Shown one piece after another: positions 42,503 through 44,875 of a stretch of 64,000 nucleotides of DNA. The position numbers were made by a program, and so were the translations under genes. The DNA is taken from the IMG/VR virus record IMGVR_UViG_3300045988_056849; one strand, 5' to 3'. The notes under the pieces are model-generated. The model saw nothing but the letters and a program-made list of their open reading frames with translations, searched no databases and had not been told where the DNA came from. The number at the start of each line of letters is the position of its first letter. Within the stretch, counting starts at the first letter, position 1. This stretch comes from a virus.

Positions 42503-44875
42503 ATGAAAGAAATAAAGAAAGCGTTGGAAACTATTGCCCTCAAAAATTCTGAGGGCGTAGTTTCCGATGACCTTCTGATTAAGGCTTGCGATGCTTACAA
42601 GATAAAGTCCGATGATTTTCTTGACGACTATGATTATCATGTATGCGTCGCAAAGTCTTTGTACGACCATCTCAACGGAATAGAGCCTGATGAAGAAATT
42701 TGTAAGGCAGTAGTTCCTGGTCAAACGAAGGTTGTCGATGGAGTAATGTATATTTATACCGCAACACCTGGTGCTAAGACTAAGTATGATTGGCGAGTAT
42801 TCAAAGGCAAGAAGAAGGTTGGTAAGCAGGTAGATGATACGAAAGCTAAGGCAAAACAACAATATATCAACGAGTTATTTCCAACCGATTTAAGCACTTT
42901 GAAAGTCGTTAAGAGGTTAGGCGGTAGCACTGGGGCTCAATTAGTAGAGGATGCTAAGGGCAATCAATACGTGATGAAGAAAGGCACGAACACTTCCAGT
43001 GGTCATGTAAAATCAGAGTTCCTGACTAATCAATTATACGAAATTCTTGGTCAAAAAGTTCCTGACTTTGAGCTTTATGATGATAACGGAGAAGCAGTGA
43101 TGCTATCGAAGTTCATACCTATGGCGCAAGCTCCGAGTGCTAAGAACTACGATGATATGGCAAAAGGGTTTATCGTTGATGCTCTTTTAGCAAACTGGGA
43201 TATTTATCAGAACGACAATTGTTTAATTGATTCAGCTGGAAGAGTCATTCGAGTTGATAATGGAGGTGCTTTGAGTTATAGAGCTCAAGGCAGTAAGAAG
43301 GTATTTGGGAATATTGTAGATGAATTCCTTTCAATGCAAAAATATAATCCATCTATTGTTGCTAATCTTAAAGACGAAGATTATATAAAACAAATTGAAG
43401 ATGTATTAACTAAGCGTGACGATGTAATCAATTTTTTAGAAGAAAGTCCATGGACTCAAAATACAGGATATGCTAAAACTATTTCTGGACGTTTTCAAGA
43501 TTTGGAGCGTATTAAGAACGATTTGGAAGCAAAACTTGCTAAGAAGAACAAAAAGATATTGCCGAGAAAGCTCAAGAGCGATGCTGATATGTATCGGGAG
43601 TTATCTGATGATGAGCTGGACGCTATATGGAAGGGTCAATCAGGCTCCGATTATTGGCGTAAACTCAATGCTACAAATTATACCGTAGGTTGGGAGCTAT
43701 TAAGTACGATATGTGCTGAAAGAGGTTTTACTGCCCGTCCAAACGTAGTAGATGAAGCGGAATATTGGAACGCTGTTAAGCAATCAAAATATCAAATGTT
43801 CCGTGGGTTATCGGACGGAGGAGGACACGATGCGGAGTATTATGCCGATGATTTCAAATACAATGATAATTGTTTCTATGGAACTATTGGTATTCACGGC
43901 TCTGGTATCTATGCTCACGTAAATGACGGAGACCACGACAAGAGTAATACTCAAACGACATATAAGAAGTCCGATGCTTACAACGCTGCGAGAAGTTATG
44001 CTGGCCGTTCGGGAGAGATACTTGAATGCGTTCTTGACCCTTCGGCAAAAGTCGCTTTGGTTCCTGATTTGAAGAAGGAAATACTCAGTTTGGTAACCTT
44101 TGACAAAGCAGCTGTTGATGCGAAGCAGCTTGAGATTGATAGCCTAAACTCACAGCTGAAGAAGCAACAGGATGACCTCAATAACATAACGGATAAGACC
44201 GAGAAGGAAATCAAAGAAAAGATGCACTGGGACGAAGATACGCTTGTAATGTCCCAACTTGAAATTGATAATACTGATTGGGGGAAACTGAACGATAACG
44301 GTGACCCAGACTATCCTACGTTTGAGGACTTCGTTGAGAAGAAGATGTTTGATTGGGTTAAGAAGAATGGCGGTACAGTAACCGAGAAGGGGAAAGGAAC
44401 GGATGTATATGTATTCACTTTGCCTAACAGTAAAGAGAAGTTCATGTTGAGTCGTTTTCAATGGGAGAACAACGCCATTAAACGCAAGAATGCTTTTAGT
44501 AAAGCATACAACTATCCTTTGAAACGCTTCCAAGATTGGATGATGAAAGAACACTACGGTGTTATCAATAAAAAGGTAGCGAAGGAGCTTGAGCACATTG
44601 GAGACAAAGTTACTAACTTACAATCAGACATAAAGGTAACAAAGAACGAATTGAACGTCAAAACTTCCGAAATGGCAGACTTGAAGAAAACGAAAGACCC
44701 AAATGGAGACATTATTTCGGGCATCTACGAGTCAGTCAGAGGAGGAAGCAAAGAAGCTATTGGAACATACGCTGCGTTGAAAGGTTATGACGCTATTGTC
44801 GAGCCTCACGGAAACGGTGGCCCAAATTCGTTCATGATTATTCTCAACCGTAGTAAAGTAATTGTTAAAAAGTAA
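42503..44875 (+). CDS. giant multidomain protein: atypical kinase-like and ADP-ribosyltransferase-like regions
   Basis: aa 135-265: GGSTGAQLVEDAKGNQYVMKK...LLANWDIYQNDNCLIDSAGRVIRVDNGG (PI3/4K / actin-fragmin-kinase-like catalytic loop). aa 365-515: LSDDELDAIW..SDYWRKLN, YQMFRG and GEILECVL (ART-like R and E regions). Confidence 0.6.
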   Translation: MKEIKKALETIALKNSEGVVSDDLLIKACDAYKIKSDDFLDDYDYHVCVAKSLYDHLNGIEPDEEICKAVVPGQTKVVDGVMYIYTATPGAKTKYDWRVFKGKKKVGKQVDDTKAKAKQQYINELFPTDLSTLKVVKRLGGSTGAQLVEDAKGNQYVMKKGTNTSSGHVKSEFLTNQLYEILGQKVPDFELYDDNGEAVMLSKFIPMAQAPSAKNYDDMAKGFIVDALLANWDIYQNDNCLIDSAGRVIRVDNGGALSYRAQGSKKVFGNIVDEFLSMQKYNPSIVANLKDEDYIKQIEDVLTKRDDVINFLEESPWTQNTGYAKTISGRFQDLERIKNDLEAKLAKKNKKILPRKLKSDADMYRELSDDELDAIWKGQSGSDYWRKLNATNYTVGWELLSTICAERGFTARPNVVDEAEYWNAVKQSKYQMFRGLSDGGGHDAEYYADDFKYNDNCFYGTIGIHGSGIYAHVNDGDHDKSNTQTTYKKSDAYNAARSYAGRSGEILECVLDPSAKVALVPDLKKEILSLVTFDKAAVDAKQLEIDSLNSQLKKQQDDLNNITDKTEKEIKEKMHWDEDTLVMSQLEIDNTDWGKLNDNGDPDYPTFEDFVEKKMFDWVKKNGGTVTEKGKGTDVYVFTLPNSKEKFMLSRFQWENNAIKRKNAFSKAYNYPLKRFQDWMMKEHYGVINKKVAKELEHIGDKVTNLQSDIKVTKNELNVKTSEMADLKKTKDPNGDIISGIYESVRGGSKEAIGTYAALKGYDAIVEPHGNGGPNSFMIILNRSKVIVKK

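Follow-up and report, generated by a model that had tools for sequence, protein, structure and literature searches.

A 790-residue phage protein with a HipA/CtkA-like kinase domain and a split domain resembling ADP-ribosyltransferases

The IMG/VR virus record IMGVR_UViG_3300045988_056849, analysed here over a window of 64,000 nucleotides (the whole stretch of DNA under study), carries on its plus strand an open reading frame (ORF) whose product, a conserved multidomain protein of 790 amino acids (aa), is the subject of this report. An initial annotation of the DNA had singled out this ORF as a candidate ejected effector with kinase-like and ADP-ribosyltransferase (ART)-like regions, and the ORF and the motifs quoted for it are present as claimed: GGSTGAQLVEDAKGNQYVMKK at aa 140-160, SEFLTNQLYEILG at 171-183, LLANWDIYQNDNCLIDSAGRVIRVDNGGAL at 228-257, LSDDELDAIW at 366-375, YQMFRG at 430-435 and GEILECVLDPSAKV at 504-517. 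The gene is real: among 5.8 billion proteins searched there are 317 homologous clusters, the best 120 of which are nearly all full-length orthologs of 45-93% identity, with a few truncated fragments; many orthologs are located on phage contigs of ~95-100 kb. The protein is divided as follows:

42503-44875, plus strand: whole ORF, conserved multidomain protein of 790 aa, ATG start
42503-42844, plus strand: N-terminal region, aa 1-114, three helices and a small beta-sheet in the AlphaFold2 model (predicted local distance difference test score, pLDDT, 57-86 here)
42845-43507, plus strand: HipA/CtkA-like protein-kinase-fold domain, aa ~115-335, from AlphaFold2, Foldseek, orthologs and motifs
43508-43675, plus strand: long linker helix and first helices of the C-terminal module, aa 336-391, with invariant R355 and Y364, from alignment and AlphaFold2
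43676-44128, plus strand: ART-like domain, first part, aa ~392-542, from AlphaFold2 and distant-homolog mapping
44129-44740, plus strand: insertion, aa ~543-746, two coiled-coil hairpins and an alpha/beta knob, from AlphaFold2 and homolog mapping
44741-44872, plus strand: ART-like domain, second part, aa ~747-790, from alignments and comparison with ART-PolyVal

The N-terminal region, which contains the motif YIYTATPGAKTKYDWRVFKGKK at aa 83-104, similar to the N-terminus of the adjoining AAA protein (see below), is possibly a targeting region.

The segment from aa ~115 to 335 is a HipA/CtkA-like kinase, as its fold, its sub-threshold HipA matches and its motifs indicate, and judging from its residues it is probably active. 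An AlphaFold2 model of aa 1-352, built with 72 sequences (mean pLDDT 86.8), gave 156 Foldseek matches in the PDB at E<=1e-3, all of them kinases, with the best TM-scores for the HipA-like kinase CtkA of H. pylori (3akk/3akl). The kinase-like region of the initial annotation is thus borne out by modelling and structure comparison per domain, with HipA and CtkA as its nearest families. Pfam gave no HipA-family match for the 790-aa protein itself, and among 30 orthologs gave sub-threshold matches to HipA_C in 10 and to HipA_2 in four, the orthologs scoring 14-17 bits against the gathering cut-off of 30.5 for the HipA models (HipA_C, PF07804; HipA_2, PF20613). The more specific comparison first drawn, with atypical PI3/4-kinases or kinases of the actin-fragmin type, was reasonable on these motifs, the HipA and CtkA families having historically been grouped with PI3/4-kinases, but the corresponding profiles do not bear it out: PI3_PI4_kinase had no match, and in the ten orthologs listed in detail Act-Frag_cataly (actin-fragmin kinase) came up only once, at E 0.02 and below its cut-off.

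The kinase motifs comprise a GGSTGAQ loop (aa 140-146), K159, E172, D233, N239, D252-x-G and a conserved YRAQG (259-263), and K159, E172, D233, N239 and D252, invariant or at least 90% conserved in the orthologs, are conserved as well in homologs from the phages Dolphis, GodonK and Forza. In E. coli HipA the counterparts are VAGAQEK for GGSTGAQ, K181 for K159, DNE...LGLNVPDAE for KSE172...LGxxVPDxE, D309...N314 for D233...N239, and YD332 for VD252NGG, an assignment of catalytic residues (beta3 Lys, alphaC Glu, Asp, Asn and Mg-binding Asp) made by motif alignment, not by structural superposition. When HipA was compared with the ortholog profile by hhalign, only the alphaC region was aligned, at 6% probability. 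The phage domain therefore has in common with HipA and CtkA the fold, a GAQ-type phosphate loop, the Lys and Glu, a D...N catalytic loop and the Mg-binding Asp, whereas its catalytic loop reads WD-x4-DN instead of the DxHxKN of HipA. It also differs from HipA in being embedded in a 790-aa phage protein and in lacking the HipA N-terminal domain and a HipB-type antitoxin: Pfam found no such domain in the protein, and the genes beside it, for an AAA ATPase and small ORFs, include no HipB/HipS-type partner.

That the domain might instead be a small-molecule kinase, acting on a sugar, a nucleotide or an ADP-ribose-derived signal, or else a pseudokinase, would suit the N-acetylhexosamine kinases among the Foldseek matches, the neighbouring glycosyltransferase and the NUDIX partners of some relatives. 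Yet its best structural and profile neighbours, CtkA and HipA, are protein kinases, and the activation-loop-like YRAQG is conserved in all phage families examined; we regard this alternative as improbable. The kinase part of the protein is already in the literature. A locus with a glycosyltransferase, an AAA ATPase and a HipA-family kinase between the portal and major capsid protein (MCP) genes was described in five genomes of "Gratiaviridae", contractile-tailed gut phages of Bacteroides, where HHpred gave 99% to HipA kinases for the same type of locus (Benler et al., 2021; Microbiome 9:78, PMC8008677). That paper covers the kinase domain, for which a role in superinfection immunity was proposed, and contains nothing on ADP-ribosylation, on the C-terminal half with its split domain or on homologs in other phage groups (PMC8008677).

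The AlphaFold2 model of aa 353-790 has a pLDDT of 94.8 and, compared with BFVD, matched only uncharacterised phage proteins. An exhaustive search with a profile of this half (A4) retrieved 1499 representatives at 50% identity (E<=1e-3), a family for which there is no Pfam model. When the A4 profile was mapped on 71 distant homologs, the segments equivalent to aa ~392-542 and ~747-790 were adjacent in most of them, forming one domain of ~200 aa; because the two parts are contiguous there, the ART-like domain of the 790-aa protein is one that has been split, by an insertion of ~205 aa. The insertion (aa ~543-746), in which W593, G623-G624, P641 and H684 are invariant, is absent from most distant homologs, and the same split occurs in gp67 of the Gordonia phage GodonK. 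The first part of the domain contains the motif RGFxARPxVV, the strand QMFRG (R434), GxHGSGIYAH (Y470), a helix and the non-catalytic strand EILECVL. The second part, YAALKGYD(763)AI ... GNG ... FMIILN(782)R(783)SKVIV, aligns with the GYDG...EYAV strands of ART-PolyVal (PF18760), the H-Y-D ARTs of phage polyvalent proteins. Three residues are invariant in the orthologs as well as in the distant family, namely R434 in xFRG, Y470 in GxGxY and R783 in LNR; D763 in GYD is invariant or at least 90% conserved. A protease triad built on Cys404 and His472 was considered and rejected, neither residue being invariant. A profile of small, free-standing homologs (A6) found, in a search of the large protein database, matches that were all unannotated save for two protease fusions, and had nothing relevant in the PDB.

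An ART of the R-S-E type, the resemblance first proposed for this half, is excluded. Its strand-1 Arg is there, YQMFRG being very likely the strand-1 motif with R434 invariant, but the remaining elements of the class fail. The C-terminal half has no S-T-S motif, as the initial annotation had itself suspected, and the corresponding strand reads GIYAH (family consensus GxGxY). Neither is there a catalytic (Q/E)xE: the Glu residues of GEILECVL, E505 and E508, vary among orthologs, and the C-terminal tail has N-S-F at the ExE position. Finally, the 790-aa protein has no match to PF03496, the model that detects the true ARTs of the phages Dolphis, Mecenats66 and Forza. The ART idea was right only in outline, the likeness being to PARPs and ART-PolyVal through matches that are all sub-threshold. 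The Tyr that marks H-Y-[EDQ] enzymes, within GxGxY(F/A), is represented by the invariant Y470, and it is there that sub-threshold matches to PARP, ART-PolyVal and tankyrase align. A homolog with several copies of the domain (P0152) matched Pfam ART-PolyVal at E 2.3e-5 (25.6 bits, cut-off 31.2) and PARP at E 2.4e-3, in both cases inside the copies and on the motif GxGIYFS...Y. A profile of such polyvalent-protein copies (A8), run against all PDB sequences, gave 28 matches at E<=10, of which 27 were PARP domains of tankyrases, at E 0.27-1.9 and all aligned on GAGIYFAE...Y. For the model of the C-terminal half, Foldseek listed PARP1 as the sole ART-fold enzyme, with four entries (E~3, ~111 aligned columns, root-mean-square deviation 5.9).

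Spacing was likewise counted in favour of an ART: R434 and Y470 are arranged as R-36-Y in the 790-aa protein, and Tyr and Asp as Y-93-D in an unsplit homolog (P0205), close to the H862-34-Y896-92-E988 of the PARP1 triad. Bona fide ART-PolyVal domains, taken from head modules in which small homologs of the ART-like domain are encoded too, share its order of elements: xxHGS and a strand come first, then a helix with a terminal Y, a further strand and a helical insertion, and finally GYDG with the last two strands. In this arrangement the GYD Asp lines up with the acidic residue of the H-Y-D triad described for ART-PolyVal by Iyer et al., 2017 (PMC5512222), although hhalign after trimming gives only P 0.013 and 3% probability. 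The two domains thus agree in element order, with xxRG in one and xxHG in the other, GxGxY(F/A) and GYD(G/A), and both occur in multi-copy arrays, in head modules and in polyvalent proteins. The ART-like domain nevertheless has Arg in place of His, stays below Pfam thresholds with weak profile-profile support, and is interrupted here by ~205 aa; moreover, true ART-PolyVal proteins adjoin small homologs as separate genes, which marks the ART-like domain as a different family. The invariant R434 and Y470, the conserved D763 and the weak but concordant PARP and ART-PolyVal matches make a PARP-like ART with an R434-Y470-D763 triad plausible, with D763, in the C-terminal tail beyond the insertion, as its likely third catalytic residue; we lean, with some reserve, towards an ART-superfamily fold.

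Two further observations concern the wider family. In some homologs, among them P0152 (1423 aa) and P0156 (2703 aa), the ART-like domain is repeated four to five times in tandem, P0152 ending in a canonical PF03496 ART, and these arrays mirror the multi-copy ART-PolyVal proteins known from Iyer et al., 2017 (PMC5512222). An N-terminal leader, KFNPYHD..GRF, is common to small ART-like homologs and bona fide ART-PolyVal proteins (alignments A6 and A7).

The relatives of both domains place them in comparable company. On the 71 distant homologs of the ART-like domain, Phage_Mu_F is found in 11, NUDIX in 10, ART-PolyVal in three (sub-threshold where checked) and ADPrib_exo_Tox in two, and further partners are portal, XkdF-type prohead protease, S78 protease, minor capsid protein 2, zeta toxin, GNAT, 2H and HipA_2. 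In other myophages, small homologs are found between the MuF/portal and capsid genes, beside ART-PolyVal-2H-protease fusions. Fusions of ART-PolyVal to a 2H phosphoesterase (Acb1-like), to an XkdF-type prohead protease or to both were noted in head modules at L009:4010-5632 and L010:3805-6975.

Homologs of the kinase domain occur in unrelated phages (tblastn against all phage records, E 1e-10 to 1e-16; hmmsearch profile E 1e-21 to 1e-28 for a handful of proteins), and in the phage proteins examined they are coupled to an ART in every case but one. The kinase is fused to a PF03496 ART in gp117 of the Pseudomonas phage Dolphis, ORF50 of the Morganella phage Mecenats66 and a protein of the Escherichia phage ECML-606-1. 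In the Gordonia phages Forza (gp78 and gp80) and Sixama (gp73 and gp75) the kinase gene follows directly after the portal gene and the ART is encoded one small ORF downstream (gp79 and gp74 lying between), while in GodonK gp67, also right after the portal gene, the kinase is fused to the same split ART-like domain. The exception is a 3289-aa protein of DSL-LC01, a kinase homolog without a recognised ART. These kinase-ART proteins of other phages, 734 to 3289 aa long, with additional domains and from different hosts and lineages, mostly carry a canonical R-S-E ART of PF03496, unlike the 790-aa protein. With the kinase recurrently coupled to an ART in unrelated phages, the ART-like domain thus fills the place that is taken elsewhere by canonical ARTs. 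Forza gp78 (L004:7665-9869) also has, at aa ~600-615, the string LVDGHHRYVKA, which resembles the DGxHR of ParB/sulfiredoxin-type proteins and has no match in Pfam.

Against an ART stand several results, and none of the evidence for one is significant on its own. The confident model of the C-terminal half found nothing better than E 0.66 by Foldseek in the PDB, its PARP1 matches standing at E~3; Pfam, PHROGs and the PDB, searched with the complete protein sequence and with profiles of its orthologs, yielded only coiled-coil noise; strand 1 carries an invariant Arg and not the His that defines the H-Y-E/D clade; and the hhalign probabilities of 77-92% between the A6 profile and ART-PolyVal were inflated by the N-terminal NPYHD..GRF leader, falling on trimming to the 3% (P 0.013) given above. 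It may therefore be asked whether the kinase is the only enzyme in the protein, the C-terminal half being a non-catalytic structural, scaffold or binding module (for instance head-internal, DNA- or portal-binding, or a coiled-coil stalk) with ART-like motifs that are convergent or relics. The lack of a significant fold or profile match to any ART, the long coiled coils, the missing canonical His and Glu, and the tandem arrays in polyvalent proteins all suit such a module. Yet R, Y, D and N-R are invariant in very divergent homologs, a pattern typical of active sites; every sub-threshold match falls on the same NAD-binding motif of PARPs and ART-PolyVal; the domain sits where analogous kinase proteins have canonical ARTs; NUDIX and 2H, with which it co-occurs, are ADP-ribose-related domains; and ART-PolyVal too is found in multiple copies (PMC5512222). 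A non-catalytic C-terminal half is on balance unlikely, though far from negligible, and we retain the putative ART as the preferred reading.

The gene lies among the following features of the window:

16226-17944: large terminase
30943-32676, plus strand: portal protein, 10 kb upstream of the kinase gene
39009-40478, plus strand: glycosyltransferase-like ORF with weak GT1/GT4 Pfam matches
40533-42500, plus strand: P-loop/AAA-like ATPase with Walker-A AGGAGIGKS, acidic linkers and a conserved C-terminal head-protein motif
45246-45982, plus strand: GH108 lysozyme and peptidoglycan (PG)-binding ORFs, 3' of the kinase gene, from domain searches
46030-47565, plus strand: head maturation protease, from domain and profile searches
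47592-49085, plus strand: MCP, from domain and profile searches
52842-54464: tail sheath

The stop codon of the AAA-like ORF lies 2 nt before the start of the 790-aa ORF. The initial annotation had set the gene between MuF and the prohead protease, a placement that fails on both sides: the upstream ORF (40533-42500) has no MuF match in Pfam or PHROGs, and its MuF identity is rejected; it carries a Walker-A motif and corresponds to the "AAA-family ATPase" of Benler et al., 2021; downstream, three small ORFs (a 121-aa ORF, the GH108 lysozyme and the PG-binding ORF) precede the protease. Distant relatives keep the order of an upstream protein of ~580-660 aa, the kinase gene, an ORF of ~120-138 aa, usually the GH108 lysozyme and PG-binding ORFs, then a protease of ~514 aa and the capsid protein. 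The MCP is of the Herelleviridae/SU10 type and 45% identical to that of the Bacteroides phages DAC16-23. A crAss-like phage was considered and rejected, in view of this capsid and of the protease and tail sheath. The best explanation for the source is a "Gratiaviridae"-like Bacteroidota myophage of the gut Bacteroides type: judged by the described layout, the HipA-family kinase protein of the "Gratiaviridae" has the same locus, with the glycosyltransferase and AAA genes directly upstream, a position between portal and MCP, and a contractile tail. A scan for sigma-70 promoters was uninformative, as expected for a Bacteroidota phage. Between the PG-binding ORF (end at 45982) and the protease there is, at 46005-46040 on the plus strand, a hairpin with a 15-bp stem and a T-run, overlapping the TTG at 46030 that was mechanically called as the beginning of the protease ORF. 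The hairpin may terminate a glycosyltransferase-AAA-kinase-lysozyme transcription unit, and if it is the end of that unit the protease probably starts further downstream than 46030.

In the reading we prefer, the gene would be expressed from this late head/lysis block and its product would be an effector with two enzymes. The first (aa ~115-335) would be an active Ser/Thr kinase of the HipA/CtkA type, and the second (aa ~392-542 plus 747-790) a divergent ART of the PARP/ART-PolyVal (H-Y-E/D) type, whose R434-Y470-D763 triad would bind NAD+ and transfer ADP-ribose. The ~205-aa coiled-coil stalk with its globular knob, at the site of the ART target-recognition loop, would probably select the substrate. 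Most likely the protein would be packed in the capsid and released with the DNA into the next host, there to modify host proteins by phosphorylation and ADP-ribosylation, whether for takeover or for counter-defence, much as T4 Alt and T7 Gp0.7 do. Delivery with the DNA is likely from the comparative context, which gives this reading its main support: the ART-like domain stands where canonical ARTs stand in other phages, and both domain families are typically found in head-packaged or polyvalent proteins (PMC5512222, PMC9503650). Like T4 Alt and the MuF-fused or polyvalent effectors, the product would be large, late and encoded among head genes, with enzyme domains that modify the host, and domains related to its own occur in fusions with MuF, portal or protease. 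T4 Alt, however, belongs to the R-S-E ARTs and follows a known pathway of capsid targeting and cleavage, whereas the 790-aa protein has no MuF domain. A kinase and an ART-type domain combined in a head-associated effector is interesting and not unprecedented. For the two-enzyme, head-delivered effector as a whole, we consider the evidence evenly balanced. The analysis establishes the ORF and its conservation, the kinase fold with its intact motifs, the splitting of the C-terminal domain, the fusions of that domain's family to head proteins and the repeated coupling of kinase and ART; the fold and activity of an ART, the packaging and ejection, and the host targets are inferred.

Head delivery itself faces three further objections. 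Pfam found no MuF, portal or prohead protease domain in the 790-aa protein, although its domain families carry such fusions elsewhere; a literature search for virion proteomics of the protein or its homologs found nothing; and the strong hairpin at 46005-46040 may separate the block of the kinase gene from the protease-capsid unit. Along the lines proposed by Benler et al., 2021, the product could then be a late intracellular enzyme and not virion cargo, acting in the producing cell with the AAA ATPase and the glycosyltransferase to modify the envelope or capsule and so confer temporary superinfection immunity during virion assembly. The conserved and tightly packed glycosyltransferase-AAA-kinase trio, with its 2-nt gap between AAA and kinase genes, the lysozyme in the same block, the hairpin that may set this block off from protease and MCP, and the absence of a MuF or portal domain are all in keeping with such a role. 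But kinase and ART are repeatedly paired in phages without the glycosyltransferase/AAA couple, and the AAA protein has a C-terminal motif in common with actinophage capsid-maturation-protease proteins. An enzyme confined to the producing cell seems to us rather unlikely, and a packaged effector remains the preferred reading.

Head-packaged enzymes allow a phage to act on its host before any gene expression, and gut Bacteroides phages, abundant as they are, have to our knowledge hardly been studied biochemically. Should the C-terminal module be an active ART, a large unannotated enzyme family would be present in the head modules of many phages, and the recurrence of a HipA-type kinase beside ARTs would be explained. 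A bolder and doubtful proposal is that the module represents an unrecognised and very widespread clade of phage ARTs, with an R-Y-D active site, no Pfam model and ~1500 representatives at 50% identity, split here by a stalk-and-knob insertion for target recognition, and that HipA-type kinases are obligatorily coupled to a canonical or new ART in head-delivered proteins from actinobacterial to Bacteroidota phages. If so, this coupling would imply that both enzymes work together against a single host target or pathway, with ADP-ribosylation that depends on phosphorylation, or the neutralising of an NAD+/ADP-ribose-based defence, as examples. The published reading of the locus, superinfection immunity through capsule modification, gains a testable alternative, with K159, D233, R434, Y470 and D763 pinpointed for mutation; if the module is not an ART, the published kinase annotation and a conserved domain of unknown function remain.

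Smaller features of the neighbouring genes deserve mention. The GH108 lysozyme (45246-45656) and PG_binding_3 (45653-45982) are separate, overlapping ORFs and not one endolysin, as they are in two relatives (L007 and L008). A motif of ~30 aa forming a beta-hairpin, VGD.HP...WVWTEY.PGKFDWR(..KGKK), is repeated in three ORFs of the phage, at 40575-40664 (aa 15-44 of ORF 40533-42500), ~7840-7930 (in ORF 7054-8322) and 42749-42814 (aa 83-104 of the 790-aa protein); the AAA-protein orthologs of L006 and L007 keep it at their N-terminus, and it may serve these proteins as a common tag for targeting or binding. Towards the other end of the AAA protein, a 54-aa segment, MPDGSFPIRNTSDLKNAIQAVGRAKDPDKAKAWIKKRAKALG, at 42270-42431 (aa 580-633 of ORF 40533-42500), shares 60-76% identity with segments of proteins from Gordonia and Microbacterium phages that bear the annotation capsid maturation protease, a remarkable conservation across phyla. 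Four KAE[EDS][VI]L[FN] repeats flank the segment, the final one at the extreme C-terminus, an arrangement that recurs in the orthologs.

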